This document shows, one piece after another, positions 835 to 54,488 of a stretch of 64,000 nucleotides of DNA (positions are counted from its first letter, which is position 1; the number at the start of each line of letters is the position of its first letter). Source of the DNA: a virus. The notes under the pieces are model-generated. The model was not told the origin of the DNA. It ran no database searches and worked only from the letters and a program-made list of their open reading frames with translations. The stretch is taken from positions 122,518 through 186,517 of IMG/VR virus record IMGVR_UViG_3300026521_000471; one strand, given 5' to 3'. Both the position numbers and the translations under genes were made by a program.

Positions 835-862
835 TAATTAATTTTTATTTAATAATCCTTTT

Positions 863-870
863 TGTATAAT
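863..870 (+). promoter_or_regulatory. extended -10 promoter TGTATAAT (member of a recurring TTTGTATAAT family)
   Basis: TTTGTATAATAATATAAAAGGATTATTAATG; about 18 nt to the ATG. Confidence 0.5.
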
Positions 871-888
871 AATATAAAAGGATTATTA

Positions 889-4150: not shown

Positions 4151-5482
4151 GTGATTACATTAGAATATGTTGCTAGTGCTTGGATGAATTTTAATTTCCT
4201 AAATTCAAAAGACCCGGAATTATTAAAATGGGCATCTGAAAATTATACTGCAAATTTAAAATATATGATGAGTAAATTAGAAAATAATATTTTTGAATTT
4301 TCCGGACTTTATAATGCTTTTTATGAACCCGAACAATATGAGCGTATTTTAGAATGTGGAATAAGTGATCCGAGTTGCGGACATAAACATGTTTATGCTG
4401 ATAGTGGTGGTCTTCAGATGATGAAGCAAAATCTAAATATTACTGAAGAGATTAAAAAAAATATAATGCAAAATCAAGCAAAATACTCAGATTTTGCATT
4501 TATTTTTGATGAAATACCATCTTATAATGTTGATGATACACGAGTATTTGTGAATGAATGGGTAAAACCTTACGGTGAAAGAACAGGACAAAATTTAAAT
4601 ACATTATTAAAAGTTATAAAAGATAATAATTCTCATACAAAAGCAATACCTATTGTTCAAGGTAGAGGAAGAGAGCAAATAACTGAATTTACAAACGCAA
4701 TGTTATCTCAAATATCAAAGAACGATTTAAAATATATTGAAGCTTTTGCTATGGGTAATGCCCATGGAAATGGTTTTGGTTTATTGCAATCTACTAGTAC
4801 TTTTTTATCTATGAAAAATATCGATAATAAATTTAAAAAACACATTCACTTACTTGGAGTAACAGGTTTTGATAGGATGATTCCAATTCTTCAATTAGTA
4901 AAAAATGGTTTATTTGAGCATACCGAAAAGATTTCATTTGATAGCAGTTATCATGCTAAAACCTATGCTTTTGGCAATCTTCAAAAAAGCGTTGAATGGT
5001 GTATTAATGGTATGCAAGATGATAAATTAGGTTTAAAAAGAAATAAAATGACAGAAGACTTTTTTAAAGAATTAGATGATTTTTGGAAAAATTCTCCCAC
5101 GTATAATATTGATGAATTTGATGACTATTTTAAATATTCATCATGGGATAAAGATAAAATCAACACACCAAATAGACAATTAGCTGAGCGAGACGTAGAA
5201 GCATATAAAAAAAATGTAAATATTATTCAAAATTATATTTTCTTAAATATGTACAAATATTTTGAAGTTTTAAATAAATTTATGACTGATGAACTTACTA
5301 TGGAGCAGATTCTCCATAGTAAAAAAACTCTAAAGATATTCCAACCATTACAAAATGTATATTCACTTGATGAATTATATGATTGGGAAAATTATGCCGC
5401 ATCAAATTATAAAGTTCAAGTTAGTAGCTCTATCGATAAAGCACCTTTTGACATTGATAAAGTAACTGATGTTTTATTTTAA
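4151..5482 (+). CDS. tRNA-guanine transglycosylase-fold protein, DpdA-like (putative DNA 7-deazaguanine transglycosylase), paralogue 1
   Basis: GTG start after a ribosome-binding site. YADSGGLQMM matches the TGT catalytic DSGG(F/Y)Q motif. HLLGVTGFDRMIPILQLVKNGL...ISFDSS matches LMGVG.P...G.DMFDC. No CxCxxC zinc site is present. Confidence 0.7.
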   Translation: MITLEYVASAWMNFNFLNSKDPELLKWASENYTANLKYMMSKLENNIFEFSGLYNAFYEPEQYERILECGISDPSCGHKHVYADSGGLQMMKQNLNITEEIKKNIMQNQAKYSDFAFIFDEIPSYNVDDTRVFVNEWVKPYGERTGQNLNTLLKVIKDNNSHTKAIPIVQGRGREQITEFTNAMLSQISKNDLKYIEAFAMGNAHGNGFGLLQSTSTFLSMKNIDNKFKKHIHLLGVTGFDRMIPILQLVKNGLFEHTEKISFDSSYHAKTYAFGNLQKSVEWCINGMQDDKLGLKRNKMTEDFFKELDDFWKNSPTYNIDEFDDYFKYSSWDKDKINTPNRQLAERDVEAYKKNVNIIQNYIFLNMYKYFEVLNKFMTDELTMEQILHSKKTLKIFQPLQNVYSLDELYDWENYAASNYKVQVSSSIDKAPFDIDKVTDVLF

Positions 5483-5494
5483 TAGGAAACATTT

Positions 5495-6805
5495 ATGACA
5501 ACAAATTTAGAATTCGTTTTTTCAGCTTTTCCTCATTATATGAAAATGTGTAGGCAACAGGGTGAGATGTATAAAGCAACAGCCCAGTCAGTCCAAACAT
5601 CAATAGCATATATGAGATCAAAACTCAAAGATAATGTATCTGTAAGTGCTTTATTTAATGCATATACAGAGGAAGATTGTGCTAGAAATGCATCTAATAG
5701 ATTTACAGGTATGAAATCCATTATTGGTAGTAACCTCTATGCTGATAGTGGTGGATTACAAATGATGACTTTAGGACATACAGTTGATGAAGCACAAAGA
5801 AAAAAAATTTATGAAACCCAAATAAAATATGCGACACATGCTATGAGTTTTGATGAAATTCCCGGTATTTTCATTGATAAAAAAAAATATTATAAACCAG
5901 ATACCGTATATAACTGTGGCGTTATTTCTGGGGGAAATTTACTTGAACAGTATAATTTTTTCAAAGAGGCTAGATCAAATACAAAAATTGTGCCAATTAT
6001 TCAGGGATGGGGTTATAAAGATACAGATCTATTTACTCAAGGTTTGATGACAAATTGTAAAAATATTTGGAACGAATTTGATATGTTAGCTGCTGGATTT
6101 CAAAGTTCATCAATTTGGGGAACGGCTCAAAGAGCAATAGATATATATACAAATCCATTACTCAAAAAACAATTTTTAAATCATTATCACATGCTTGGTA
6201 TGAGTGGTTATAAAAGAATAATCCCTATGATAATGATACTTAAAAGCGGATTAATAAAAGATATGAAGACACTTTCATTTGATAGTTCCTCAATATCTAT
6301 GACATATGTAATGGGCAACGTTATAAAATCGACTGATGATTTAATCAATAATAGAAAATATGAATTGGGGAAAGAAAGAACTAAAGAAGTTGAGGATTAC
6401 TATAAAGAGCTGTATGAATTCTGGAAAGATGCACCCAATTGCAATTTTAAAGATTGGGAAGACTTATTAGAAAATTCTCAATGGAATAGTAGGGGTGTTA
6501 AGAGTGCAAAAGCTCGTCATGATGAAACCAATGATATTAATGAATCATTAAAATATCTGACACAAGAACAATATTTTATTTTCTATAATGTATATAAGTA
6601 TGCTATGGTTCTTGAAGATTTTTTAGAGGGTAATATAGAATTATCAGATATATTTAAAGGTAAGGATTTAGAATTATTCAGTCAATTAGAAAAAATAGAT
6701 AATATAGATGATTTCTATGAATGGCAAGATTATGTAAATAAAACACAAAATATAAAATTAGAAATATTTGAGAAAGATAATGATTTTTCAAATATTTTAT
6801 TTTAA
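5495..6805 (+). CDS. tRNA-guanine transglycosylase-fold protein, DpdA-like, paralogue 2
   Basis: YADSGGLQMM and HMLGMSGYKRIIPMI...LSFDSS; collinear paralogue of the upstream gene. Confidence 0.7.
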   Translation: MTTNLEFVFSAFPHYMKMCRQQGEMYKATAQSVQTSIAYMRSKLKDNVSVSALFNAYTEEDCARNASNRFTGMKSIIGSNLYADSGGLQMMTLGHTVDEAQRKKIYETQIKYATHAMSFDEIPGIFIDKKKYYKPDTVYNCGVISGGNLLEQYNFFKEARSNTKIVPIIQGWGYKDTDLFTQGLMTNCKNIWNEFDMLAAGFQSSSIWGTAQRAIDIYTNPLLKKQFLNHYHMLGMSGYKRIIPMIMILKSGLIKDMKTLSFDSSSISMTYVMGNVIKSTDDLINNRKYELGKERTKEVEDYYKELYEFWKDAPNCNFKDWEDLLENSQWNSRGVKSAKARHDETNDINESLKYLTQEQYFIFYNVYKYAMVLEDFLEGNIELSDIFKGKDLELFSQLEKIDNIDDFYEWQDYVNKTQNIKLEIFEKDNDFSNILF

Positions 6806-17811: not shown

Positions 17812-18864
17812 ATGGGATGTTGGAATGAAACATGTGGACTCTCACAAAAATCTATTAGTTATGGTGAAGCAGTATATGCCGTAATCATTCTAAATGAAAA
17901 TGCAGTATATAAATCATGCTATGCTAATGGAATGGCTAGACCTTTTTCTTTTTTAATAGAAGGAACCTATGATGATTATGGCTCTATCGAAAATATTAAA
18001 GATACATTTGCAGCAAAATCTTTAGTTTTATTATTCAATGATCTAATAAATGAAAATAAACTTATTATATCGGATGAAGTTATGAATCAGAATTACTTTA
18101 ATAATGAAGAAATTGGCTATGATGGTAAATACTTTGCCCATCCAGAAGCAATTTTTAAATTTATTGAAAGAGGGTATCTAAGCCTAAGTACAAATTCTTT
18201 CGACGGTGGAAAAAATGAACAAACATTTTCTTTTACTCTTTTTGATTGTGATGCATATGATGCCATGAAAGAAGTAATTGAATATAGAGAAGTAAAATAT
18301 ATAGATCTTCAATATGATGTACAAGAATTTTTAAATACCCTATTAAACAAAAATAATATCAATTTAAATAAGGCTGAAATAAGAGAAAAATTAAAAGATG
18401 ACAATTTGAGTGATGAAGAAAAAGATATACTTATTGAACTTTTATTCCAGGACCGTAATTCATTATGGGGTGGTGAGAAATTAAAGTCTAAAGCATCTAA
18501 ATGGGGAAACATGTTGTCATATTTAAGAAGTTATGAAAGTGTTAATCGAGATGCATTTAATAAACTAGAAAAAATAGTAAGATCAACATATAATCAAAAT
18601 AACAATAACGACATCAATACAACTATATCAGATTTTATAATAACACTCTTGATATTTAATACTTTTAGAAAATCTTGGGCACCACAAGGTCATGCATCAC
18701 AGGATGATAATCTTATTGAAATAATTGATTTCACAGAACGGTTTTTAAGAAAATTATACAAGAAGAGAGATATTTTAAAAGAAGAAGGCTACTATGAAGA
18801 TGAAAATGAAGTTATAGGTAGTGTTTCAATATTAGATGAAAAGAAATTACTATGCAATTCGTAA
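17812..18864 (+). CDS. hypothetical protein
   Basis: ORF track. Confidence 0.45.
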   Translation: MGCWNETCGLSQKSISYGEAVYAVIILNENAVYKSCYANGMARPFSFLIEGTYDDYGSIENIKDTFAAKSLVLLFNDLINENKLIISDEVMNQNYFNNEEIGYDGKYFAHPEAIFKFIERGYLSLSTNSFDGGKNEQTFSFTLFDCDAYDAMKEVIEYREVKYIDLQYDVQEFLNTLLNKNNINLNKAEIREKLKDDNLSDEEKDILIELLFQDRNSLWGGEKLKSKASKWGNMLSYLRSYESVNRDAFNKLEKIVRSTYNQNNNNDINTTISDFIITLLIFNTFRKSWAPQGHASQDDNLIEIIDFTERFLRKLYKKRDILKEEGYYEDENEVIGSVSILDEKKLLCNS

Positions 18865-19349
18865 ATGTATTTGACTTGGATTGTACCCTAATAGATAGTT
18901 CACACAGAATAAATAAATTTGGAGATCCAAAAAAAGGTCTAGATTTAGACTATTGGATCGACCATTCAATATCAGAATTCATAAATAAAGATAAGCTCTT
19001 ACCTTTAGTAGAAGTTTTTCAAGAATTTAAGAAAACAAATTTTTCAAACATCGCTGTAACTGCAAGAGAAATGACTAACGCAGATTATGAATTTTTAAAA
19101 CAGCACGATTTACATTTTGATATGATATTACATAGAGAAGATAGCGTTGAATTAGATCACATACTTAAAAGTAGAAAATTAGATGAATTATTTGCATCCA
19201 CAAACTTAAAGCCTTTTTTAGCGTTTGATGATAAAGAAGAGAATTTAGAAATATTTAAAAAATTTGGTTTTACATGTATTAATGCTATCGAAATTAATAC
19301 TATTATGTTAGGCATATCATTAAAATGCAATGCAGAAAAAAATAATTGA
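18852..19349 (+). CDS. HAD-superfamily hydrolase-like protein
   Basis: N-terminal FDLDCTLIDS (the DxDxT motif I of HAD phosphatases). Confidence 0.5.
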   Translation: MQFVNVFDLDCTLIDSSHRINKFGDPKKGLDLDYWIDHSISEFINKDKLLPLVEVFQEFKKTNFSNIAVTAREMTNADYEFLKQHDLHFDMILHREDSVELDHILKSRKLDELFASTNLKPFLAFDDKEENLEIFKKFGFTCINAIEINTIMLGISLKCNAEKNN

Positions 19350-19386
19350 AATAGGATCTTCCCTATTTCAATTTTTTCCTTTTTAT
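19348..19386. terminator. rho-independent terminator-like hairpin with T-run
   Basis: GAAATAGG-atcttc-CCTATTTC stem followed by AATTTTTTCCTTTTT. Lies between convergent genes. Confidence 0.55.
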
Positions 19387-19408
19387 AGGCAAGGTAAAGG
19401 TGTCCACC

Positions 19409-19705
19409 TTATTCTTTTGAAAAAATTCGTTCTGCAAATTGAGTAACAGGTCCTCTAAGAACTTTTTGTAATTCTATACCAAATAGATTTACTTCTTCAT
19501 GTTCTTCTTTTGTAGCATTTAAAAGGGTGGTTAAACCATTAGTATATCTTGTAATATACTGATTATCAATCTGTCTATTTGAACCTAATACAATAACTTT
19601 ACAAGAAGAATCAATACGACTTAATACTAGTTGTAATGTAGAATTACTCATATTTTGAGCTTCATCAATAATTACAATAGCATCTGAAAGTGTTCGACCT
19701 CTCAT
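19409..19705 (-). pseudogene. phoH 3'-end fragment: ~88% aa-identical duplicate of the last ~96 codons of the PIN-PhoH gene at 20493..21920
   Basis: Translation (M)RGRTLSDAIVIIDEAQNMS...ELQKVLRGPVTQFAERIFSKE aligns with the C-terminus of the full gene. Similarity stops exactly at RGR. The fragment has no N-terminal ATPase part. Confidence 0.75.
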
Positions 19706-19727
19706 ACTACCAAAACTTTTTAATAAT

Positions 19728-19736
19728 TGTATAAAT
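19728..19736 (+). promoter_or_regulatory. extended -10-like TGTATAAAT upstream of the GIY-YIG homing-endonuclease gene; the leader closely resembles the one at 863
   Basis: ATTGTATAAATAATATAAAAGGATTAAGG compared with TTTGTATAATAATATAAAAGGATTATTA. Confidence 0.45.
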
Positions 19737-19762
19737 AATATAAAAGGATTAAGGACAAATTC

Positions 19763-20500
19763 ATGATATATACCATATATAAAATCACAAATAAACTAAA
19801 TAATAAAATATATATAGGAGCCCACACAACAGAGGACATTTCCGACAATTATATGGGTTCGGGAGCAATATTAAAAAAAGCTATTGAAAAATATGGGTTA
19901 GATAATTTTTATAAAGAGGTGTTATATACGTTTACAACCGAAGAAGAAATGTATTTAAAAGAAGCAGAGTTAGTTAATGAAGAATTTATTCAACGAGATG
20001 ATACTTATAATTTAAAGGTCGGTGGATATGGAGGATGGTCTTATATTAACGAAAATAAATTAAATAATACAGAAAAAAATAGATTATCAAGATTAAAAAA
20101 TTTGGAAAAAGCAAATGAAGCAAATAAAAAATTAGTTGCTGAAGGGAAGCATAGAAAAGGCTTTAAGATTAGTGCGGAAACAAAATTGAAAATGTCGTTA
20201 AATAAGAATCGGTCATTTCCTGGCGAAAAAAACCCTCAATATGGGAAAAAATGCGTTAATAAAAATGGTAAAAATTTGATGATATTAAAAGAGGAAGTAA
20301 ATGACTATATTAAAAAAGGTTGGGAGTTAGGTCAAATACAAAATAAACCAGATACCAAAGGAAATAAAAATGCGTCCTTTGGTAAAAGCTGGTACACAAA
20401 TGGTGAAGAAAGTAAATTATTAAGCCAAGAAGAGTCAATTAAATACATTTCTTTAGGTTGGACAAAGGGTAGAACATTGAAAAAAAGTAAGACTAGCTAG
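19763..20500 (+). CDS. GIY-YIG homing endonuclease (Seg/I-TevI-like)
   Basis: N-terminal IYKITNKLNNKIYIGAHTT...YNLKVGGYGG is a GIY-YIG module. The Lys-rich C-terminal half resembles a DNA-binding region. Flanked by duplicated phoH 3' sequence. Confidence 0.7.
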   Translation: MIYTIYKITNKLNNKIYIGAHTTEDISDNYMGSGAILKKAIEKYGLDNFYKEVLYTFTTEEEMYLKEAELVNEEFIQRDDTYNLKVGGYGGWSYINENKLNNTEKNRLSRLKNLEKANEANKKLVAEGKHRKGFKISAETKLKMSLNKNRSFPGEKNPQYGKKCVNKNGKNLMILKEEVNDYIKKGWELGQIQNKPDTKGNKNASFGKSWYTNGEESKLLSQEESIKYISLGWTKGRTLKKSKTS

Positions 20501-20520
20501 TCTTACTAAAAATTTTTTCC
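20486..20520. terminator. 22-bp perfect palindrome (AGTAAGACTAGCTAGTCTTACT) spanning both convergent stop codons, with T-runs on both sides (bidirectional terminator-like)
   Basis: Read from the sequence. The homing-endonuclease and phoH reading frames both end ...SKTS within the palindrome. Confidence 0.5.
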
Positions 20521-21920
20521 GCAAATGTTGTTATAGGTCCTCTTAATACTTTCTGTAATTCTATACCGAATAAACTTACTTCTTCATGTTCTTCTTTTGT
20601 AGCATTTAAAAGTGCAGTCAAACCATTCGTATATTTGGTAATATATTGATTATCGATTTGTCTATTTGAACCCAATACAACAACTTTACAAGAAGAATCA
20701 ACCCTAGTCAATGTTAGTTGTAGTGTACTAGTACTCATATTTTGAGCTTCATCAATAATTACAATAGCATTAGATAAAGTTCTTCCGCGAAGTGCACCAG
20801 TCCACATAGTTTCAACTTGATAACGTTCTACTAACTCTTGGACTTTTTCAGATATTCGTTCTTCAGTTACAGTTTCTCCCTTACCAGGCTTATTTTCTTT
20901 TGATTTTTTTAACATTTGACCCGCAATATAAGCAAGAGTATCAAATAATGGGAAATTATATATCTCAAATTTTGCTTCATTCGTTGAAAGATAACCTACA
21001 TCTTCTCCTTTAGCTAACGATTCAACTGAGTTTCTAATATAGACTATACGTTGATATTCTTTACACTTAATCAATTCCATTGCTGCACTAATAGCTAAAA
21101 GGGTTTTACCAGAACCAGCTTTAGCTTCAGCTACAACGATATTATAATGATTATTAAGTAATGCATTACTAAAAAATAATTGTTCGGCATTCATAGGATT
21201 TACATTTTGTTTACGTAATTCTTTTTCATCTAAAAATTGTATTTTATTATTAATTATATAAGCAAGTATTTTTTGCCCGTCTTTATTAAAAATATAATTA
21301 AAATTATTTGGTTTGTGTTCGGAGTTAAAATCTAAAATATTATCTCCCTCTCGAACTTCCTGTCCATTTAAATTAATTTCTTTAATAAAATCTAAAGAAA
21401 TCTCTTTATTTCCTAAATTTAATGGTTCTGTCTCCAGTCCTAAACTTATAGCTCTTGTTCTAGCCATCACATCTAATGATATAAATTTAATATGTTCATA
21501 ATTTATATCCTCTGTATTATGTATTAAATCCAATGTAATTTCTAAGATCTTTCTATCATTTCTTATACTATTACTCGTATTATCAGAATCAGCTTTATAT
21601 ACTTCCTTGGATATAATATGAATAACAGTATCATCTACTTTAGTTTCGATTAAAACTATATCAAATGATTTATTGTTGTCGCTATTTGCTTTTATAACTC
21701 TTTTATCTTTAATTTCCGCATCAAATAACATTCTACCGAACTCTCTGGCTTGGAAATTTATTTCATCCCAACCACTTTTTTTACTATCTATTTCATCTAA
21801 TACTGTTTCTGGTAAAATAATAAGATTTTTACCATTATCCGATAAAGTGAATAGATTTTTTGCGTCGTCAAGTATTATATTTGTATCTAAACAAAATACT
21901 TTTTCAAATTTTTTAGTCAT
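20493..21920 (-). CDS. phoH: PhoH-like ATPase with N-terminal PIN domain (YlaK-type)
   Basis: PIN-like FCLDTNIILDD; Walker A AKAGSGKT; IIDEAQN; C-terminal PhoH signature. Confidence 0.85.
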   Translation of the reverse strand: MTKKFEKVFCLDTNIILDDAKNLFTLSDNGKNLIILPETVLDEIDSKKSGWDEINFQAREFGRMLFDAEIKDKRVIKANSDNNKSFDIVLIETKVDDTVIHIISKEVYKADSDNTSNSIRNDRKILEITLDLIHNTEDINYEHIKFISLDVMARTRAISLGLETEPLNLGNKEISLDFIKEINLNGQEVREGDNILDFNSEHKPNNFNYIFNKDGQKILAYIINNKIQFLDEKELRKQNVNPMNAEQLFFSNALLNNHYNIVVAEAKAGSGKTLLAISAAMELIKCKEYQRIVYIRNSVESLAKGEDVGYLSTNEAKFEIYNFPLFDTLAYIAGQMLKKSKENKPGKGETVTEERISEKVQELVERYQVETMWTGALRGRTLSNAIVIIDEAQNMSTSTLQLTLTRVDSSCKVVVLGSNRQIDNQYITKYTNGLTALLNATKEEHEEVSLFGIELQKVLRGPITTFAEKIFSKTS

Positions 21921-22536: not shown

Positions 22537-23946
22537 TTATTTAAAGTTTTTTAATTCTATTTTTTCAACCTCAAATGGGTATTGAGCCTCTTTATAAAAA
22601 TCTTTTCTAGATTTTATATGTTTTTTATCATATTTTAAATTAGATGTTATATCAATTACTGTAACATGTTCTTTCTGTCCAGATTTTCTTCTAAGCCCTC
22701 TTCCAATCGATTGTATAACTTTTGTAAAACTTTTTCCAGGTGTAGGTGCAAGAATTAAGTTGTTAATATGTACAATATCAATTCCAGTACTAAGTAATGA
22801 ATATGTTCCAACTGTTACTAAATTACCACCATAAACGAATTCATTAAATTTCTCTTGTCTTTTATCAACCGTTAATTTTGAACTAATATAACCACACTCT
22901 AGAAATTCTGATAAATCTTCAGCCGGATCTATATTCTTCATCAATATCAATGTGTTACCTTCTAATGAATCAACAATGGCTTTCATTAATTTTTGAAACA
23001 TTTCATTACTTTGTAAAAAAACAGTCTCTTCATGCCAGTCAATAAATGAGCCTAAATATTCTTTAGGGTAAACCAATTCAAAAATATTAATATCTATTGA
23101 AGATAATATATTTCTCTTTTGTAATTCATGTGCTTTTACATCATAAACCACAGGACCAAAACCAGCTGTTAAATTAGCTTTGTCTAAAGGATCTTTTGGC
23201 ACAGTACCCGTCAAACCTATTCTCAAATATGAATTTTTTGCCTCATTCATAATTTGTTGAGCTACATATGCTTTAGCGCCATGTACTTCATCCCATATCA
23301 CACATTCAAAATCTCGTATAAAATGTTTATTATTTTGTAGTGTTTGCCAAGTAGCCACAATATTAATTTCATTATCTTTTTTACCACTACCAAACATACC
23401 GACAGGAATATCAAATTGTTTTATATAATCAAATGTCTGTTTTAACAATGATGATGATGGTACAATGACAATCGTTTTCATATTTAGTTTATTGGCATAT
23501 TTAACGATAGCTGATGTCAATAAGGTATTATGATGAACTGTTCCATTTGCTATTTGATATAAATGATTTTCAGAATTAACTTCGACATCATATAATAAAC
23601 CCTGTTCATTTAGATTCTCTATATTTGTAACTACTGCCATATGTTTTTCATCAACATTATATAATCTATCACCTATAGACAATTCATTGACTTTTTTTAT
23701 AGTTTGGTCATCTAACATTAAGATATGATTATCAGTAGTTATTATATTCTCTATTGCATCAATCTCTAGCTTTATTAAATTATCCTCTTTTACAATAAGA
23801 CCTTTAATATCAACCCATTTACCGACCTCATCTTGAATTTGAATTGGTGTACGTTGAAAATATTCCTCATCTCTACGAAATGCAATATCTTCTTCTAACG
23901 ATATTATTTTAAATAATTGTTCAAAAGTTAATTCTATTTCTTCCAT
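22537..23946 (-). CDS. C-terminal fragment of a split SF2 (UvsW-like) DNA helicase: 137-aa C-intein (IntC) followed by helicase motifs Ia-VI
   Basis: A TAA lies immediately upstream of the ATG. Residues 1-137 carry intein block B (TTDNHILM) and blocks F/G (LLYDVEVNSENHLYQIANGTVHHN). The +1 Thr then starts TLLTSAIVKYA...TIVIVPSSSL (motif Ia), DEVH (motif II), GLTGT (motif III) and QSIGRGLRR (motif VI). The P-loop (motif I) is absent and is found in the N-fragment at 39479..40027. Confidence 0.8.
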   Translation of the reverse strand: MEEIELTFEQLFKIISLEEDIAFRRDEEYFQRTPIQIQDEVGKWVDIKGLIVKEDNLIKLEIDAIENIITTDNHILMLDDQTIKKVNELSIGDRLYNVDEKHMAVVTNIENLNEQGLLYDVEVNSENHLYQIANGTVHHNTLLTSAIVKYANKLNMKTIVIVPSSSLLKQTFDYIKQFDIPVGMFGSGKKDNEINIVATWQTLQNNKHFIRDFECVIWDEVHGAKAYVAQQIMNEAKNSYLRIGLTGTVPKDPLDKANLTAGFGPVVYDVKAHELQKRNILSSIDINIFELVYPKEYLGSFIDWHEETVFLQSNEMFQKLMKAIVDSLEGNTLILMKNIDPAEDLSEFLECGYISSKLTVDKRQEKFNEFVYGGNLVTVGTYSLLSTGIDIVHINNLILAPTPGKSFTKVIQSIGRGLRRKSGQKEHVTVIDITSNLKYDKKHIKSRKDFYKEAQYPFEVEKIELKNFK

Positions 23947-26024: not shown

Positions 26025-26624
26025 TCAATTATAAGGTTCTATATTAAATTCTTCAAATAGAACCTTAAGCCCAACAGTTAATTTTCCCGACTTTGGAAAG
26101 TCAGGAAATTTTTTCTTTCGTCCACTCAATCCATATTCTTTTTTTAATTTATTATAATTTCGTTTAGATACCTTTTGAGCTTTTGGTTCTTCTGATGGAT
26201 GTATATAAAAATTTCCTTCTTCATCTTGATATGCACCAGCTTCTAAATAATCTGCTAAATTTCGTAAAAAATCTGGCAAACTGATCGGGTGGTTAGTTTC
26301 ATCTGCTCCGAAATATCTTTTCCAGTTATTTGTGATTTTTCCTTCCATTGCATTTGCCCTAAACTCTAAAGCATTTCTAATCGTACCTTTTTGTTCAGAA
26401 CATTCTTCATTTTTTAATTTATGAATATGATCTAATACCATTTTATCGAGTTCAACCTCAATTCCTAATAATGGACATATTTTATTATTTTCTAACCATA
26501 ATTTTTCTTTTAATTCTTTTATATTTTTCTGTTTTAATTGTATTAATTGTTTCATAGTTTTATTTATATGATAAAAATTGTAAAATTGATATAAAAAAAA
26601 TAAGGTTTTGTAATGGATGAGCAA
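26025..26624 (-). CDS. putative His-Me finger nuclease (HNH / T4 endonuclease VII-like)
   Basis: ICPLLG...VLDHIHKL...EEC loosely resembles the endo VII CxxC...HLDHDHEL core. Free-standing on the minus strand between plus-strand genes. Confidence 0.35.
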   Translation of the reverse strand: MLIHYKTLFFLYQFYNFYHINKTMKQLIQLKQKNIKELKEKLWLENNKICPLLGIEVELDKMVLDHIHKLKNEECSEQKGTIRNALEFRANAMEGKITNNWKRYFGADETNHPISLPDFLRNLADYLEAGAYQDEEGNFYIHPSEEPKAQKVSKRNYNKLKKEYGLSGRKKKFPDFPKSGKLTVGLKVLFEEFNIEPYN

Positions 26625-28034
26625 ATAGATGATACAGAATATGAAGACGCTTTAGCCGAATTAGAGGCAGAATCATCTTCAAAAAAGAAAAAGAAGAAAA
26701 AAACAGTTGAACATTCAGAAGGCAAACTATTAGATATTGAAGATAAAGAACGAATTTTACTTGCTCAACTTATTAATAACCCAGAATTATTTGTTAAAGG
26801 TATAACTTTTCTAGATAAAGATTTCTTTGAATCAAAAATTAATAAATTAATTGTGGAATTTATGATTGATTATTATGATTTATATAAAAGTATCCCGCCT
26901 GAAGATGCTATACTATTAGAATTAAATTTAGATAACGTACATGATGATTGGTTAGATATAAATAAACCTTGGCCAACAGAGTATCTTGAAGACTATTTAA
27001 ATGCGTTTATAAAAAATATGAGTATGAAAGGTGCTATCGAAGATAGTATTGAATTACTAGAAGAAGAAGATTATGGAACTATTGAGAAGAAGATTAAAGA
27101 TGCTGTAAACGTTGATATTGATACAAAGTTAGGTGTAACCATAGATACTGATAAAGATAATTTTCGTGACTTATTTAAAATGCTAACATCAACTGAAGCT
27201 ACAATTCCAACTGGATGGTGGAACGTAGATGATAAATTAGATGGTGGTGTAACAATACCAAGTTTAAATTATTTATTAGCTAAATCTGGTGGTGGTAAAT
27301 CAATAGGTTTAATAAATTTAGCATGGAATTATATTCAGATGAAAAGGGATGTTATTTATATTTCTCTAGAACTAAAGGAAGAGAAAATCATGAAGAGGTA
27401 TATAACCCACTCAACTAAAATTCCGACCCATCAAATTGAAAAGTCTGAGATGGAAATTTATAACCATCTAAAGAAATGTGATAATAAGGGGTATGGTCGA
27501 TTTACTGTTCATTTCTATCAACCCAATACACTAAGTGCAATGAAGTTGGAATTATTTGTAAGAAATTATTTACAAAAATATAATACAGTACCTATTATTA
27601 TTCTAGATTATGCAGGTTTAATGACACCAAATGGTAAAAATTGGCAAGGTATGTTTGAAAAAGATAAATATGTTTCTGAAGAATTAAGAGCTGTGGCAAC
27701 GTTATTTGATACGATCGTTTGGACAGCAGACCAATATAATAGATGTATATCATTTGGTGAACAGGTAATAACACCGAATGGTAAAAAAAATATTGAAGAT
27801 GTTGAAATAGGGGATAAAGTTCTTGGGGGCAATAATAGTTATCGTACTGTAACAGCGATAACGGAGCCGGAAGAACAAGAAGTATATAAAATTACTTTAA
27901 AAAGTGGAAAAACTATCAAAGTATCAGGAAGACATATCTTCCCAAAAGTTTTAGAAGATGGGAAATTAGTAGAAGATTGCATATTATCTTCATTAAGTAT
28001 AGGTGACAAGTTGGTGGTCTCCGATAAAATATGA
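26613..28034 (+). CDS. DnaB / T4 gp41-like replicative helicase N-extein, interrupted after the QxNR motif by the N-terminal half of a classical split intein (IntN ~99 aa)
   Basis: TGWWNVDDKLDGG...LLAKSGGGKSIGLINLA (Walker A), IIILDYAGLM (Walker B), ...WTADQYNR. This is followed by CISFGEQVITPNGKKNIEDVEIGDKVLG (intein block A), TLKSGKTIKVSGRHIFP (block B) and ...SIGDKLVVSDKI, then a stop. Confidence 0.75.
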   Translation: MDEQIDDTEYEDALAELEAESSSKKKKKKKTVEHSEGKLLDIEDKERILLAQLINNPELFVKGITFLDKDFFESKINKLIVEFMIDYYDLYKSIPPEDAILLELNLDNVHDDWLDINKPWPTEYLEDYLNAFIKNMSMKGAIEDSIELLEEEDYGTIEKKIKDAVNVDIDTKLGVTIDTDKDNFRDLFKMLTSTEATIPTGWWNVDDKLDGGVTIPSLNYLLAKSGGGKSIGLINLAWNYIQMKRDVIYISLELKEEKIMKRYITHSTKIPTHQIEKSEMEIYNHLKKCDNKGYGRFTVHFYQPNTLSAMKLELFVRNYLQKYNTVPIIILDYAGLMTPNGKNWQGMFEKDKYVSEELRAVATLFDTIVWTADQYNRCISFGEQVITPNGKKNIEDVEIGDKVLGGNNSYRTVTAITEPEEQEVYKITLKSGKTIKVSGRHIFPKVLEDGKLVEDCILSSLSIGDKLVVSDKI

Positions 28035-29333: not shown

Positions 29334-31511
29334 ATGGATGTTAAATATTTTTTAGAAAAATTAGGAAGTTTATTAATTATTGGATTTGTTATTATATCCA
29401 CGTCTATTATACTTTATTTTAGCTATAAGTCAAATAATAAAGATATTATGGATGACATTGACAATAATTTACGCCACGAATTGATTATTTTATCTATTGC
29501 GTCCGAAGATTTGTTTAACAAATATAACAATATACTTACAATGTTAGGGGATAATATTTTATCCAAAGATAATAAACAAAAATATTTAGATACAGCATTA
29601 AAATTAGAAACTGATGCAGTGGGCTATGGTTTTATATCACCCGAAGGTAATATATTAATTAACTCCTCAAACGTCGATATAAAGAAGATCTCTAATTTTA
29701 TCTCCAACCCCAAAACTAAAGGAACATTTCTTAAAACTATAAAATCAAAATCATCAATTTTAGGACGGTCATATTTATTTAAACCGACAAATCAATTAAT
29801 TGTACCAATAAGAAAAAGTATTAGGAAAAATTCAAAAGTATATGGTGTACTAGCGGTAGGCATTAATATAAATAAGTCGTTTTCTAATTTATTTACAAAT
29901 AAAATACATAACAATTCTATAATTTTATTAATCAAAAATAACTCAGCTAGAATTCAATATTCAAACGATAATACGTTCGAAATAGATTCTATTTTAAAAA
30001 CCGATAATCCTCGACTTTTTAAAACTATAAATCAAATGACATTGACTAATACATCATTAAATAATATAAAATATAGGGTAGGTGTAAAATTTATTGAAAA
30101 ATACAATCTATGGCTTGTTATAGGCTTTCCTTCAAAAGTTATATCTTCATTAAAAAATGAATGGTTAATAAATGCTGTATCTATATGGTTTGTTTTTAAC
30201 GTAAGTTTTATTATAATGATATTAATTATTAATAAGATTAATAACGATCGGAAAAATGAATTGGAATATATTTCTATACATGATCCATTAACACATATTG
30301 GAAATAGATATTATTTAAATAAGAAAATAGTCGATTACGAAGAATATAGTATGCTATTTTTAGATCTAGACAATTTTAAATTTATAAATGATAACTTCGG
30401 ACATAATTACGGAGATAAATTTTTAGTTTCTATAGCAACAGAACTTAAAAAAAATATTTCTGCTGATGATTTATTAATACGTTTTAGTGGTGATGAATTT
30501 ATAATTATTACTAGGGAAATGAATAAAGATAAATTATTAAGTTTTGCTAAAAGATTATTGAATATGACTAATGAGAAATTTAAATATGAGCATAAGACAA
30601 CCATGAGTATTGGTATTGCACAACGAGAGGGATCTGAAGATCTACATAATGTAAAATATAAAGCAGATTTAGCTTTATATATAGCAAAAGAAGAACTAAA
30701 CACCATTATATTCTATGATAAAAATATAGAAGAATCATTTAAAGAAGAACATTTAATAGAAAATGAACTATTAGAAGGTATTATTTTAAAAGAAATTTTC
30801 ATGGTTTATCAACCACAATTAAATACTAAAAATAAAATCGTAGGAATAGAAGCATTAGTTCGATGGAATAATTCAAAGTTAGGTTATATAAATCCCGAGA
30901 CATTTATCAAAATCGCTGAAAAAAATGGAAATATGATAATTTTAGGTGATCATATATTAAATCAAGTTTTTAGTGATATTAATACATTTAAAAATATAAT
31001 TCCAGATAATTTTAATATATCTATTAATATTTCTGTTAAACAATTTATGGAAGATAACTTTGTACAAAAATTAAAGGATAAATTATACCAATATAAAGTC
31101 AATCCAAATAATATCACATTAGAAGTAACAGAAAATATATTTATTTTAGATTTAAACTATATGGAACAAATAATAAATGATTTGCATACATTGGGTGTAA
31201 AAATTTCTATTGATGATTTTGGAACAGGATACTCTTCTTTATCTTCTGTTAAACATCTGACTATTGATGAAATAAAGATTGATAAATCTTTTGTAGATAA
31301 TATTGAAAACGACCATAGTTCCAAAAGTATGGCTGAAGTAATTATTAAAATGAGTAAAATTTTTAATACCATTATTTTAGCTGAAGGTATAGAAAATATC
31401 AAACAAAAAGAAATTCTTGATAACTTAGGGTGCGATTTCTACCAAGGATATTACTTTTCAAAACCTTTACCATTAACAAAATTAAAAGAGTTCATAAAAA
31501 ATAATATTTAA
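29334..31511 (+). CDS. membrane-anchored sensor protein with GGDEF (SGDEF variant) and EAL domains (c-di-GMP cyclase/phosphodiesterase family)
   Basis: Two predicted transmembrane segments flank a ~250-aa extracytoplasmic region. GGDEF domain: HDPLTHIGNRYYL, LDLDNFKFINDNFGHNYGDKFL, RFSGDEF. EAL domain: EALVRW, LEVTENI, DDFGTGYSS, KIDKSFV, AEGIEN, QGYYFSKP. Confidence 0.8.
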   Translation: MDVKYFLEKLGSLLIIGFVIISTSIILYFSYKSNNKDIMDDIDNNLRHELIILSIASEDLFNKYNNILTMLGDNILSKDNKQKYLDTALKLETDAVGYGFISPEGNILINSSNVDIKKISNFISNPKTKGTFLKTIKSKSSILGRSYLFKPTNQLIVPIRKSIRKNSKVYGVLAVGININKSFSNLFTNKIHNNSIILLIKNNSARIQYSNDNTFEIDSILKTDNPRLFKTINQMTLTNTSLNNIKYRVGVKFIEKYNLWLVIGFPSKVISSLKNEWLINAVSIWFVFNVSFIIMILIINKINNDRKNELEYISIHDPLTHIGNRYYLNKKIVDYEEYSMLFLDLDNFKFINDNFGHNYGDKFLVSIATELKKNISADDLLIRFSGDEFIIITREMNKDKLLSFAKRLLNMTNEKFKYEHKTTMSIGIAQREGSEDLHNVKYKADLALYIAKEELNTIIFYDKNIEESFKEEHLIENELLEGIILKEIFMVYQPQLNTKNKIVGIEALVRWNNSKLGYINPETFIKIAEKNGNMIILGDHILNQVFSDINTFKNIIPDNFNISINISVKQFMEDNFVQKLKDKLYQYKVNPNNITLEVTENIFILDLNYMEQIINDLHTLGVKISIDDFGTGYSSLSSVKHLTIDEIKIDKSFVDNIENDHSSKSMAEVIIKMSKIFNTIILAEGIENIKQKEILDNLGCDFYQGYYFSKPLPLTKLKEFIKNNI

Positions 31512-46102: not shown

Positions 46103-48793
46103 ATGAATAAAATTAAAACACAAGTACATACTATAATAATGCTTATTGGACCTAGTGGTTCTGGTAAAACAACATTCGCTAATGAAATTCTAATACCCAC
46201 ATTACAAGAATATAAAGGTAGTGGAAATGACAATTTAAAAACAAATATACAATATATTAGTTCTGATGATATTAGAAAAGATATTTTAGGATATAATTAT
46301 AGTAAAATAGATGAAATTATGACTGAAAGTTCAACACAAGCATTTGAAATATTATTTACAAAATTAAGAGCTGTTACTAGTTATCCAATCAATGCTGAAT
46401 TTGTTATTTTAGATACAACTGGATTAAGTGAAAAATTTAGAAATGATGTTTTAGATATAGCAAAAGATAATAATTATAATGTCGATATTATAGTTTTCGA
46501 TTATAAGAATATTGATGAATATCAGAAAAATTTTTCTGATGAAGTTTATCAACAACCTAGTACTAATGGCAAAATTATTTCTAAGCATATAAAAAGATTA
46601 AAAACAGAAACATTAAAAACATTAAAAAAAGGTGTATATAAAAATATTCATAAAATTAAAAATAAAGATTTTCTTTTAGAAGTTGAACAGGAGAATCCAT
46701 ATGATTTAACACCTACTATGTTAAAACCTCTTTATAGTGTAGATGTATGGGATTGGAAAAAATATACTGATAGAATATTAAATAGTACTTATGATTGGAT
46801 TACTATTGGTGATGTTCATGGATGTATTCATGAATTAAAACAATTACTTGAAAAATATGGTTTTATAATTGAAGACAATGAAATCATAGATACAAACAAA
46901 ACAAAAAATATAGGATTGATTTTTGCAGGTGATTTAATTGATAAGTCGTCAGAAGAAGATTTAACTGAAACTATAAGATTTATACATAAAAATATGATAA
47001 AATTTCAAGATCGTTTTCAATTAATATTAGGTAATCATGAAGAGATGGTCTGGAAATGGATAACAAATCATAAAGATTTAGAAATTACTCCAGAACGATT
47101 GGATCAGAAAAAAAGATACTATAATACAGCAATTTTACTAGAGAAAAATGAAGAGTTAAAATCTATGTTTTTAGATATTTTTCATAATATGAAAGGTTGG
47201 GTTAAATTTATAGGATTAAACAAAAGAAGTTTTGTAGTTACACATGCACCATGTGAGGTTAAATATCTCGAAAAAATGGATCGTATTTCATTAAAACGTC
47301 AATATAAATGCGCTAGTAGAAGTAAAAACAAAGATAAGACTAATGATGAACTAACACCATATTTAAAAGAAGAAGCAGTTAATAACCATCCAGTTCACAT
47401 ATTTGGTCATATGGGACAATCATCTGTTAGATCTTTTAAAAATAAAGTTTGTATTGATACAGGCTGTGTATATGGTGGAAGATTAACTGGATACAGTATA
47501 GGATACGGTAAACCATTTATTCAAAGTGTAAAATCATTATCTCCTAAGAGTGCAAGAAACGACTTTGGAAATAATCTATTTGAAGATATAGGTAAAGCTA
47601 TAAAAGAAGTATCTATTGAAGATTTAAATCCATACAACCAAAAAAGATTAGATTATATAGTAAAAAATGGCATAGGATACATAGGAGGTACAATTTCACC
47701 TTCAAATAAAAACATCGAAAAAAATTCACTAGAATCTTTAGATAGTGGACTTAATTATTTCAAAGATAAAGTAGATAGTGTAGTTCTACAACCTAAATAT
47801 ATGGGGTCTAGAGCACAACTGTATCTCTTTAAAGATAATATTGAAAAATGCTATGCTACAAGTAGAAATGGATATAAAATTAGAGAGGACTTAACTGATT
47901 TATTCTCATCTAAATTAATAGAATACAAGCATATTTTTGATATGTATAATGCTGATGAGATAATTATAGATGGTGAATTATTACCATGGGCTCTTTTAGG
48001 AAAAGGTTTGATAGAAACACATTTTAAAACTGCGGATATAGCTATCCAAACAGAAATCGACTTTCTGGATGATAATGGGTTTGATAAGGCTTTTTTAAGT
48101 TTAAAGGATGAATTTAATGAATCAGAATTTTTAAAAGATAAAAATATTTTAGCTAAAAAAGAATTAGCTAAAAAATATGGTCACAAATATCACTCTTATA
48201 AAGATTTAAAATTTGAAATTGATAGATTCATACCTTTAAGTAAACACAAAAAAGCTTGGAAAATTTTCAATAAACAAATAACCCTTTATGGAGATGATAC
48301 AAATACAGATTTTAAAGGTTTTAGATTATTAAAAGTAATATCAAATAACAATATAATCGATTTGGATCTAACCCCTAGCGAACACTTTAAACTATTAAAT
48401 TCAGATGATATTCATATTGTTGATTTCAATGATAAAGACTATTTAGTTAAAGCTGAAAGATGGTATGATGATTTAGTGAGTAATCAAAATATGGAAGGTT
48501 GTGTAATAAAACCGGAAGTAAAGTTATTAGAATCTTGGATTGCTCCATATTTAAAAGTAAGAAATGAAGAATATCTTTCTATCATTTATGGGTATGATTA
48601 TAAATTCCCTGTCAAATTTAATAGATTATTAAATCAAAAAAATATTTCTAAAAAATTAAGACTCTCTATATCAGAGTATAAATTAGGAGAAGAAATGCTT
48701 AAAGCTCCTATGGGTAGTAAAGAACAAATACAGATTATAGCCAATCTATTATTTGAAAATGAAAAAGAAGAAAGCGTCGATCCAAGATTATAA
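46103..48793 (+). CDS. pnkp: bacterial-type polynucleotide kinase-phosphatase-ligase (Pnkp): P-loop 5'-kinase, metallophosphatase, and adenylyltransferase/ligase domains
   Basis: IMLIGPSGSGKTTFAN (kinase P-loop). ITIGDVHGC, IFAGDLIDK and LGNHEE (calcineurin-like phosphatase). C-terminal ...VVLQPKYMGSRAQLY (nucleotidyltransferase KxxG motif I). At 896 aa with this domain order it matches Clostridium-type Pnkp. Confidence 0.85.
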   Translation: MNKIKTQVHTIIMLIGPSGSGKTTFANEILIPTLQEYKGSGNDNLKTNIQYISSDDIRKDILGYNYSKIDEIMTESSTQAFEILFTKLRAVTSYPINAEFVILDTTGLSEKFRNDVLDIAKDNNYNVDIIVFDYKNIDEYQKNFSDEVYQQPSTNGKIISKHIKRLKTETLKTLKKGVYKNIHKIKNKDFLLEVEQENPYDLTPTMLKPLYSVDVWDWKKYTDRILNSTYDWITIGDVHGCIHELKQLLEKYGFIIEDNEIIDTNKTKNIGLIFAGDLIDKSSEEDLTETIRFIHKNMIKFQDRFQLILGNHEEMVWKWITNHKDLEITPERLDQKKRYYNTAILLEKNEELKSMFLDIFHNMKGWVKFIGLNKRSFVVTHAPCEVKYLEKMDRISLKRQYKCASRSKNKDKTNDELTPYLKEEAVNNHPVHIFGHMGQSSVRSFKNKVCIDTGCVYGGRLTGYSIGYGKPFIQSVKSLSPKSARNDFGNNLFEDIGKAIKEVSIEDLNPYNQKRLDYIVKNGIGYIGGTISPSNKNIEKNSLESLDSGLNYFKDKVDSVVLQPKYMGSRAQLYLFKDNIEKCYATSRNGYKIREDLTDLFSSKLIEYKHIFDMYNADEIIIDGELLPWALLGKGLIETHFKTADIAIQTEIDFLDDNGFDKAFLSLKDEFNESEFLKDKNILAKKELAKKYGHKYHSYKDLKFEIDRFIPLSKHKKAWKIFNKQITLYGDDTNTDFKGFRLLKVISNNNIIDLDLTPSEHFKLLNSDDIHIVDFNDKDYLVKAERWYDDLVSNQNMEGCVIKPEVKLLESWIAPYLKVRNEEYLSIIYGYDYKFPVKFNRLLNQKNISKKLRLSISEYKLGEEMLKAPMGSKEQIQIIANLLFENEKEESVDPRL

Positions 48794-53348: not shown

Positions 53349-54488
53349 ATGAAAAAAAGTATGAGAGAAGAATCTTTAGGAACTAGACTTAAAGGTTATG
53401 AAAGAGAGTTTGAATCAGTAATCGATCCAAAGGATTTTATTATTTGTAGAATTGATGGACATAAATTTAGCAAATATACAAAAGGTATGAAAAAACCATT
53501 TGATAAAATGTTGTCAAATACAATGGAGGAAACTACTAAAGACCTTGTTGAAAAATTTGGAGCCGTAACGGGCTATACGCAATCTGATGAAATTTCATTG
53601 GTTTTTGTCCCTCAATTCAAAGAAAGATTAATACCTATTGAAACCAAAGAATTATTTGTTCTTAATGATGAAGAAGCAACCTATAAAGTTTATGACAAAG
53701 AATACAACTTGCTAGGTTCATTAGATATTAGTTATGAAGATATGGATGATGAATATTTCAGTATTAACTTTTGGGTAGTTTCTGATACTAATGATGAAAT
53801 TATCGATCAATGTTCTTGGCAAAATAGAAACTCTAAAACTGAGGCTAAAGCATTAGAAACGCTTTTAAAGTATATCATTAAGAAAGTTGAAATAACAAAT
53901 GAGCAAATTTTTGGAGGAAGAGTTCAGAAATTAACTTCTTTGATTGCGGCATATACTACTATGCAGTTTAATAAACACTTTTCTAAATTTTTAGAAAAAA
54001 CATACGAAGATTATGAAGAAAAATTAGAAAAGGGCGAAATCGATACGAATAGTTTAGAGGCCATGAAATACCTTAAAACAATGGATGAAAAAGTAGGTAA
54101 TGCTTGGTTTGATGCTAGAGTTTATGGCGTATCATCTAAAGAAGAAGCATTTAACAGTATTATGTGGCGAATTCGTGATGCCGAGAAGAACTCTAGATCA
54201 ATGTTTGCACAGACATACTGCTCTCATAAATCGCTATTAGGAAAAAATGGTCTTGAACAGGTTGAATACTGTAAAGAAACTACTGGTAAAGATTGGGAAG
54301 AAGTTGAAGATAAATACAAATATGGCATTTTAGTTAAAAAAGAAAAATATCTTAAACCTATTTCTGAAGGGACTATGGATTATGCTCAAAATGATTTTGT
54401 AGAAAGATCCAGAATTATTAGTTGGGCTGAAAAAATTACTACTTTCTCTGGTGAAAAAGTTGAAATGGTTGTTAGGAAATATAAATGA
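53349..54488 (+). CDS. Thg1-like protein (tRNA-His guanylyltransferase family 3'-5' nucleotidyltransferase)
   Basis: FIICRIDGHKFSKYTKGMKKPFDKMLSNTMEETTKDLVEKFGAVTGYTQSDEISLVF aligns with Thg1 (VVVRLDGRNFHRF...GQSDEYSFVF), including both metal-binding carboxylate motifs. Confidence 0.8.
   Translation: MKKSMREESLGTRLKGYEREFESVIDPKDFIICRIDGHKFSKYTKGMKKPFDKMLSNTMEETTKDLVEKFGAVTGYTQSDEISLVFVPQFKERLIPIETKELFVLNDEEATYKVYDKEYNLLGSLDISYEDMDDEYFSINFWVVSDTNDEIIDQCSWQNRNSKTEAKALETLLKYIIKKVEITNEQIFGGRVQKLTSLIAAYTTMQFNKHFSKFLEKTYEDYEEKLEKGEIDTNSLEAMKYLKTMDEKVGNAWFDARVYGVSSKEEAFNSIMWRIRDAEKNSRSMFAQTYCSHKSLLGKNGLEQVEYCKETTGKDWEEVEDKYKYGILVKKEKYLKPISEGTMDYAQNDFVERSRIISWAEKITTFSGEKVEMVVRKYK

Follow-up and report, generated by a model that had tools for sequence, protein, structure and literature searches.

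We examined a 64,000-nucleotide (nt) stretch of viral DNA (IMG/VR record IMGVR_UViG_3300026521_000471, positions 122,518 to 186,517; hereafter the window) in which the 3' end of a PIN-PhoH gene occurs twice, on either side of a putative homing endonuclease gene. Comparison with relatives makes it likely that a phoH-specific endonuclease cassette invaded the PIN-PhoH gene, carrying a replacement 3' end and displacing the native one; since that replacement end is in frame, phoH has stayed a full-length hybrid gene. An earlier note on this DNA had placed an endonuclease gene between two phoH 3' ends, and the open reading frames (ORFs) bear it out: 19409..19705(-), 19763..20500(+), and 20493..21920(-). 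Identities, insertion mapping, and segment comparisons below use as reference the endonuclease-free relative L006, a 221.5-kb JGI contig. The parts of the locus are as follows.

18852-19349, plus strand: dNMPase-like gene, which now adjoins the side of the locus with the displaced phoH fragment
19344..19373, no strand assigned: native bidirectional terminator-like hairpin between the dNMPase-like gene and the original phoH end, now downstream of copy B
19409..19711, minus strand: copy B, the displaced native phoH 3' end (ancestral codons 375-474 plus stop; called ORF, 19409..19705)
19712..19762, plus strand: endonuclease leader, meeting copy B between ACC and AAAAC, with TATAAATA at 19730-19737 and a Shine-Dalgarno (SD)-like AAGGA at 19751-19755
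19763..20500, plus strand: predicted free-standing Seg-like GIY-YIG homing endonuclease gene of 245 amino acids (aa), antisense to phoH
20486..20507, no strand assigned: perfect 22-bp palindrome AGTAAGACTAGCTAGTCTTACT, lying across the 8 bp by which the two convergent stop regions overlap
20493..20798, minus strand: copy A, the foreign replacement phoH 3' end (codons 375-475 plus stop), in frame with the native 5' part
20799..21920, minus strand: native 5' part of the PIN-PhoH gene (codons 1-374), with PIN_4 and PhoH domains
19712..20798, no strand assigned: whole inserted cassette of 1087 bp (copy A, endonuclease gene, and leader), delimited by three-way alignment and blastn breakpoints

The window holds no further endonuclease paralogues and no other high-identity gene-fragment duplicates.

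Origin of the two phoH 3' ends

The hybrid phoH gene (native 5' part plus copy A; ORF 20493..21920[-]) is in frame and encodes 475 aa with complete PIN_4 and PhoH domains (Pfam), while the 98-aa product of ORF 19409..19705(-) matches positions 113-203 of the 205-position Pfam PhoH profile (E 1.8e-22). Copies A and B share 84 of 98 aa (86%, or 87% over the 95 aa from RGR) and differ at 56 of 294 nt; the earlier note was right that they are closely similar, though its figure of about 88% was slightly high. Set codon by codon against phoH codons 377-474, the fragment has 57 codons identical, 27 changed synonymously, and 14 changed nonsynonymously. That similarity begins exactly at RGR is true of the two copies with each other, but homology between copy B and the endonuclease-free allele extends three more codons, to 19711 (GGT AGT ATG).

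The closest PhoH in the protein collection (P0001, 95% identical) is encoded on L006 and on the Logan contig L007. Both contigs match the window in gene order on either side of the locus, with synteny over about 17 kb, and have neither an endonuclease gene nor a second piece of phoH; their phoH converges directly on the dNMPase-like gene. The earlier note had proposed a comparison with relatives lacking the insert, in which a different, independently functional gene containing the fragment would have told against its reading; in these two the homologue of the fragment is the 3' end of phoH, so the reading stands. L006 is collinear with the window through all of phoH and, from phoH nt 1123, also aligns with the window from position 19711 downstream past the phoH stop. 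In the DNA alignment the window thus carries a clean insertion of 1087 bp (19712-20798), whose boundaries are ambiguous by 3 nt because GGT is common to both junctions. The segments compare with L006 as follows.

phoH 5' part (nt 1-1122): 93.8% nt identity; 56 synonymous and 11 nonsynonymous codons
Copy B: 92.7% nt identity; 19 synonymous and 3 nonsynonymous codons
Copy A: 77.7% nt identity; 31 synonymous and 15 nonsynonymous codons

Copy B therefore diverges from L006 by 7.3%, equal to the background, and copy A by 22%. At the protein level, the N-terminal part and copy B are each 97% identical to P0001 and copy A is 85% identical; against L006, copy B matches at 93 of 95 aa and copy A at 83 of 95. 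Because copy B stands at background divergence and copy A is far more diverged, the present phoH is a hybrid and copy B its displaced native end, with the switch from native to foreign sequence falling at phoH nt 1113-1126. Both copies show substitution patterns typical of functional genes. These sequence comparisons support an imported copy A over one produced by local duplication.

A local tandem duplication of the phoH 3' end, with later divergence and an endonuclease gene that landed independently between the copies, would account for two direct repeats of equal length in the same register. Divergence in situ would, however, have freed one copy from constraint, and the changes in both are dominated by synonymous substitutions despite their unequal distances from L006. 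The phoH gene attached to copy A cannot have diverged that far in place, because its 5' part is 97% aa-identical to P0001. We regard such a duplication as highly improbable. The earlier note had read the locus as the footprint of homing with partial co-conversion and duplication of the target gene. A footprint of endonuclease-driven conversion is what we also favor, but with a foreign end imported and the native end displaced in place of a local duplication. Conversion on the 5' side amounts to at most 13 nt, because 103 nt 5' of the insertion (20809-20911; phoH nt 1010-1112) are identical to L006, followed by two differences (nt 1113 and 1122) and then by copy A.

Occurrence of the arrangement in separate assemblies

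The window arrangement was also assembled in a 140-kb ENA contig (ERZ27262639:k141_278161), and the identical endonuclease and 98-aa fragment are both recorded for a 224-kb contig. Window positions 19654-20605 are reproduced with 0 mismatches by L100, a Logan contig of 952 bp from a different run, which covers the junction of copy B and leader, the entire endonuclease gene, and its overlap with the phoH end. At both ends this contig breaks within blocks of identity between copies A and B, the behavior that a real repeat should show. One might suspect that metagenome assembly had joined two co-occurring phoH alleles into a chimera, since occupied and empty relatives come from related-looking sample accessions (Ga0256837/Ga0256838; SRR7968103/107/109). 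The same arrangement in the 140-kb contig, the joint record of fragment and endonuclease on the 224-kb contig, the exact Logan match, and three further assemblies of an analogous structure (L008, L009, and L010, described below) all argue against it, and we give it almost no credence.

An endonuclease clade tied to phoH

The 245-aa protein matches PHROG 314 "homing endonuclease" (E 2e-45). Its Pfam matches to SegE_GIY-YIG (E 1e-4, 22.9 bits) and NUMOD3 (E 0.004, 17.4 bits) lie below the curated cutoffs of 25 and 20.4 bits, respectively, and PF07460 is precomputed for most of its close relatives. In a profile of 12 relatives, residues 1-88 align with the catalytic domain of I-TevI (1MK0/1LN0; E 0.003), and Y6, Y17, G19, E67, R78, and N83, which include the tyrosines and glycine of the GIY...YIG motif, are invariant across the 12. 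On these matches we assign the ORF as a free-standing Seg-like GIY-YIG endonuclease gene. It is borne by neither an intron nor an intein: copy A carries its own stop, the endonuclease gene lies on the other strand, and positions 19200-21100 gave no Rfam match, group I introns included.

The same arrangement recurs in a second phage lineage represented by three assemblies (L008, L009, and L010), in which the endonuclease (P0122) is 70% identical and PhoH 73% identical to those of the window. The gene order there is a PDDEXK_1 gene, a 101-aa PhoH fragment, the endonuclease gene, and full phoH, and the fragment starts at query residue 377, as in the window. The N-terminal part of phoH in this lineage is closest to P0015 and P0016 (81%), whose C-terminal parts are 88% and 84% identical to the lineage's fragment versus 79% and 80% to its attached end; the L008 lineage shows the same chimerism as the window. 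In two more distant loci, L011 (endonuclease 64% identical) and L017 (54%), the endonuclease gene is convergent with phoH and no full fragment is present, and in L012 through L016 (53-58%) it is an ordinary intergenic gene that follows a distant phoH in tandem.

All endonuclease relatives of at least 53% identity with known context adjoin phoH. Among the matches listed from an endonuclease-profile scan (80 metagenome loci), which did not return the closest loci, only the two closest of those listed adjoin phoH; the 78 listed matches at 36-49% endonuclease identity served as a specificity control, and none has phoH as a neighbor. The endonuclease clade is tied to phoH. Endonuclease-free alleles are found in L006, L007, L096, and L097; L098 also has no endonuclease gene, on a contig that ends 283 nt past the phoH stop. 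The gene downstream of the locus is dNMPase-like in the window versus PDDEXK_1 in L008, L011, and L097. IMG/VR scans were set aside as a source of near relatives after giving only distant matches (PhoH 24%, endonuclease 35-38% identity), and the GenBank phage collection yielded at best a Campylobacter phage phoH of only about 66% identity and T4-type seg genes.

Target site, junction, and fate of the displaced end

The insertion point falls at codon 374/375, between the ...MWTG and xxRGRT codons and 8-10 codons before the DEAQ box, which is a highly conserved part of the ATPase and typical of homing sites. Just upstream of the leader, in the endonuclease sense, the sequences are as follows.

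Window: GTTCGACCTCTCATACTACCAAAAC
L008: GTCCGACCTCTTATTAATCCAAAGT
L017: TTCTACCTCGAATATCACCAAAAGT

Common to all three is a piece of ~20 nt that is antisense to phoH ...TTTGG(T) xxx xxx RGR(T), of which L011 retains just the RGRT part. In the window this remnant runs on into the complete copy B. L008 has a 20-nt stub followed 15 nt later by the complete native fragment, a nested footprint; L011 has ~13 nt of the remnant and the last ~17 nt of phoH left; and L017 has nothing of the fragment beyond the remnant. From this series we infer that a single ancestral junction has traveled with the cassette, that new phoH alleles have been invaded repeatedly, and that the displaced end is deleted little by little, with the window representing the freshest state and the L008 remnant an older one. 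Copies A and B differ most at the junction, where the first 24-nt windows contain 12-13 differences (mean, 4; next highest, 8), and the RGRTLS codons are all changed synonymously, a pattern of recoding that fits selection against self-cleavage.

The locus might instead record a one-off accident, in which an intergenic endonuclease gene was moved by ordinary intronless homing, one end was joined illegitimately, and a fragment was left by chance. The shared remnant would then have no role, the cassette would not be self-contained, and the illegitimate joining would stem from the recipient's different downstream gene. This account draws on L011 and L017, where the endonuclease gene lies downstream of phoH with no fragment, on the plain intergenic endonuclease genes after phoH in L012 through L016, and on the dNMPase-like gene of the window where L008, L011, and L097 have PDDEXK_1. 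L008, however, retains the full fragment although its downstream gene is the same as that of L011, so missing flank homology fails to explain why the fragment is retained. The window, L008, and L017 share this junction and remnant, and L011 has the RGRT portion, which points to one inherited junction rather than to independent accidents. We therefore consider an accident of this kind unlikely and prefer repeated invasion by a cassette with its own junction.

Copy B could also be a separate functional small gene for a protein consisting of the PhoH C-terminal domain. Its ORF is intact, starts with ATG, and has changed mostly synonymously relative to L006; the L008 fragment is likewise an intact ORF of 101 aa, and gene callers annotate both as PhoH. 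Yet in relatives the homologous DNA forms the end of their phoH, the ATG of the fragment is the Met codon that natively belongs to the ..GSMRGR.. motif, and a mostly synonymous pattern is what a recent insertion predicts. The fragment is without the Walker A half of the ATPase, and it is deleted in L011 and absent from L017. By inspection no SD sequence precedes the copy B ATG, and promoter-like matches in the region do not exceed those in shuffled sequence (17 found, 21 expected). A small gene is thus very improbable, and copy B is probably a silent remnant.

Two ~100-aa PhoH ORFs that begin at MRGR on long contigs (P0247 and P0276) were considered as further footprints and rejected; they are split bacterial chromosomal genes with no endonuclease gene. 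Bacterial PIN-PhoH genes split by a stop or frameshift are seen at L101 2901-4294 and L102 3715-4303, where a ~100-aa ORF restarts at the Met of ..EMRGR... Such split genes mimic the phage fragment in protein databases and have no endonuclease gene nearby.

Leader, promoter-like motif, and shared palindrome

The leader carries TATAAATA 33 nt before the endonuclease ATG. This motif is underrepresented in the window (18 found versus 30 expected from shuffles), and at 10 of the 18 sites the ATG of an ORF of 50 aa or more follows 22-37 nt downstream, in most cases, by inspection, with an SD-like sequence. Such placement resembles the T4 late-promoter pattern, an analogy supported by the best DNA matches, which are T4-type phage genes. 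TATAAATA or a near variant is also present in the leaders of L008, L011, L017, L012, and L016, with which the window leader aligns. The earlier note had called the endonuclease promoter nearly identical to other early promoters. Leader positions 19727-19751 do have a near-identical twin at 861-885 (TTGTATAA-TAATATAAAAGGATTA), with one indel, preceding the gene that starts at 889, but the label "early" is unsupported, the pattern being of the T4 late type.

The surroundings of that twin are of interest in their own right. Positions 848-888 (plus strand) contain a perfect inverted repeat of 13 bp (TAATAATCCTTTT/AAAAGGATTATTA) that has TGTATAATAATAT between its arms and stops at the ATG of gene 889 (fold z -4.0). 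It is a predicted hairpin that would sequester the ribosome-binding site (RBS) of a resident gene, with a promoter-like sequence in its loop, and its 3' half is the leader twin.

The endonuclease leader of the window forms no significant hairpin (z 0.07). The leaders of three relatives do, as given here from single-sequence folds (z against shuffles), which were used because RNAalifold on the three leaders misaligned the L017 3' arm.

L008 975-1049: -29.6 kcal/mol, z -5.6
L011 1345-1395: -21.7 kcal/mol, z -5.0
L017 1370-1447: -28.9 kcal/mol, z -7.8

In each, the phoH RGR(T) remnant pairs with the SD and start region and TATAAATA lies in the loop; the stems differ in sequence, with one clear compensatory change. 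We raise tentatively, as a possibility that we think rather doubtful, that the ~20-nt phoH remnant on the leader side of the cassette is a working part of the element and not debris. If so, it would be a right-hand homology arm with which the cassette could home into any phoH allele irrespective of the downstream sequence, co-opted as the upstream arm of a hairpin hiding the endonuclease RBS and possibly as a homing-site-like operator, as in I-TevI. The element would in that case have fashioned its regulation from the gene it targets; in the window copy, a fresh insertion on this reading, a resident late-gene leader would have taken the place of that control.

At the other end of the endonuclease gene, its 3' end and that of phoH overlap by 8 bp on opposite strands. 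The perfect 22-bp palindrome that the earlier note had described at these convergent stops is present at 20486-20507, and both ORFs end ...SKTS inside it because each frame reads the palindrome in one and the same register. Among the perfect palindromes of the window it is the longest, but arms of 11 nt also arise in 10 of 100 first-order Markov simulations, so its length is not significant alone and its weight comes from position, not statistics. When folded, the palindrome has a stem of 9 bp and a loop of 4 nt (z -3.6 and -3.3); TTTTTTT comes next on the phoH strand and AAAAATTTTTT on the opposite one, and a terminator scan scores both strands. That scan found four terminator-like sites in the region versus 1.1 expected, and it also scored the native convergent terminator at 19344-19373 on both strands; the same element follows phoH in L006. 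The palindrome is absent from the equivalent junction in L008, L011, and L017. It is probably a lineage-specific bidirectional intrinsic terminator for phoH and the endonuclease gene, and it would also stop phoH transcription running toward copy B.

Proposed mechanism and its weak points

In the sequence of events that we favor, the endonuclease would cut endonuclease-free phoH alleles within a few tens of base pairs of the insertion point (near nt 1123). The 5' side of the break would be repaired through phoH homology, with the cassette copied from an occupied genome, and the 3' side would be resolved either on the short target-derived patch by the leader or on a longer carried copy B. Copy A may escape cleavage through the heavy recoding of its first eight codons. 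The native 3' end would be pushed 1087 bp downstream and left without expression signals, while the palindrome would supply a new terminator common to phoH and the endonuclease gene. Copy B would then decay by deletion, as in the older insertions, and recombination between copies A and B could excise the cassette again.

Several points weigh against this account. Both the activity of the endonuclease and its cut site are predictions. No donor of copy A turned up among the best 120 full-length matches or in a search with copy A alone, and no sampled phoH is closer to copy A than copy B and L006 are (83 of 95 aa). The A copies of different endonuclease-bearing loci form no clade in a C-terminal tree, in which L011 is misaligned, and we therefore do not maintain that copy A and the endonuclease gene always move together. 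The 103 nt of perfect L006 identity 5' of the insertion, where background divergence is 6-7%, are not predicted by co-conversion from a foreign donor; this run is only the fourth longest in the 14.7 kb compared with L006. Recoding of RGRT is weak in L008 (AGA GGA AGA ACA versus AGA GGT AGA ACA), and the endonuclease-free L096 and L097 carry A-like site sequences. Finally, the late-promoter assignment is drawn solely from motif position and the analogy with T4.

Other features of the window

The window also contains two helicase genes with intein-like regions. A DnaB-like helicase ORF of 473 aa (26613-28034, plus strand) has a DnaB_C match that stops at profile position 180 of 255, followed up to the stop by Hom_end_hint (residues 382-433) and Intein_splicing (residues 408-469) matches that are both below cutoff; it looks like the N-terminal half of a split-intein or "fractured" helicase. 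A ResIII/Helicase_C helicase of 469 aa (22537-23946, minus strand) begins with a ~140-aa Hint-like region that ends ...VHHN followed by T, with no N-extein in the ORF, a layout repeated in L006, L007, and L096. It could represent the C-terminal partner of a split intein, or else an intein that has degenerated.

A 725-aa ORF (29334-31511, plus strand) combines a dCache-like region with GGDEF (E 9e-31) and EAL (E 4e-66) domains and is a candidate phage-borne enzyme of cyclic di-GMP (c-di-GMP). An RNA-repair-type cluster on the plus strand encodes a PNKP-ligase-like protein of 896 aa (46103-48793), a Thg1-like tRNA-His guanylyltransferase (53349-54488), and an RnlA-like RNA ligase (57368-58771). 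Two adjacent plus-strand paralogues (4151-5482 and 5495-6805; 443 and 436 aa) are 31% identical over 424 aa, and the product of the first matches PHROG 10773, of unknown function.

Comparison with known systems

Replacement of a gene end by an endonuclease element is well known in fungal mitochondria and has been briefly noted in phages. The fungal cases are mobile endonuclease ORFs (mORFs) that bring a replacement C terminus, as in atp6 of Allomyces macrogynus, atp6, atp9, cox2, and nad3 of Glomus sp., and atp6 and cob of Endoconidiophora, and in them the native C* end is closer to relatives and the inserted C end is foreign (PMC3630166, PMC6279837). The phoH locus has the same order of core gene, in-frame foreign C terminus, endonuclease ORF, and native C* terminus, and likewise its native end is nearer the sister genome while the inserted end keeps the protein and diverges in DNA. 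The mORF endonucleases are of the GIY-YIG or LAGLIDADG family, and that of the phoH locus is of the GIY-YIG family. The differences are that mORFs reside in organelles whereas here the host is a phage and the target phoH; that several mitochondrial cases, such as those in atp6 and nad3, are in phase or co-oriented with the host gene, whereas the endonuclease of the phoH cassette lies on the opposite strand with its own promoter-like motif; and that the phoH locus has a palindromic terminator common to two convergent genes.

Among T4-like phages, free-standing Seg and Mob endonucleases such as SegE, SegF, SegG, and MobE spread by intronless homing (PMC2988022, PMC2790892), with co-conversion of flanking target sequence and regulation of the endonuclease (PMC2988022). 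The window locus resembles them in its presence/absence polymorphism between close phages, a target in a conserved adjacent gene, a co-converted flank, and an upstream TATAAATA, as well as in a Seg-like GIY-YIG protein, whose below-cutoff NUMOD3 match suggests a module of that type. The T4-centered review describes plain intergenic insertions or split genes (mobE in nrdA, mobA in gene 60/39) and makes no mention of duplicated or displaced gene ends (PMC2988022). The literature searched contained no report of a phoH-directed homing endonuclease. In split or "fractured" genes, whether of the kind of mobE in nrdA of Aeh1 or of the split-intein kind, an endonuclease gene lies between two halves that are both needed. 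The phoH locus differs from these in that copy A completes the gene, leaving copy B redundant and, in L011 and L017, lost.

Regulation offers a further parallel. For I-TevI, segB, and mobE a late promoter has been described inside an RBS-sequestering hairpin, so that only late transcripts free the RBS, and the I-TevI promoter is also overlapped by an operator that looks like the homing site (PMC2988022). In L008, L011, and L017 the leaders are predicted to pair the SD and start with an upstream arm resembling the target site, with TATAAATA in the loop. They differ from the I-TevI type in that their upstream arm seems to have been left behind by the target gene itself, and the window leader differs in being without a significant hairpin.

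The consequences reach beyond this locus. phoH serves as a marker gene in work on phage diversity (cited in PMC3853055), and phoH trees would be distorted by hybrid 3' ends that such cassettes move around; gene callers annotate the displaced fragment as if it were a small protein of the PhoH type. The endonuclease clade could also be a source of enzymes that recognize a conserved ATPase motif.

The nearest phage precedent is the homing endonuclease gene (HEG) islands of ICP1-like phages, in which small ORFs that are fragments of neighboring full-length essential cargo genes are briefly mentioned and proposed by the authors as recombination substrates for later homing (PMC10055350). The phoH locus differs in being mapped to within 3 nt against an empty allele, in that its native and foreign copies are distinguished, and in a decay series across lineages, the available loci including empty alleles, occupied alleles, and older decaying insertions. 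It offers a nucleotide-level phage example of a third route, besides introns and inteins, by which an endonuclease may occupy a conserved gene without damaging it, namely, by bringing a spare gene end.

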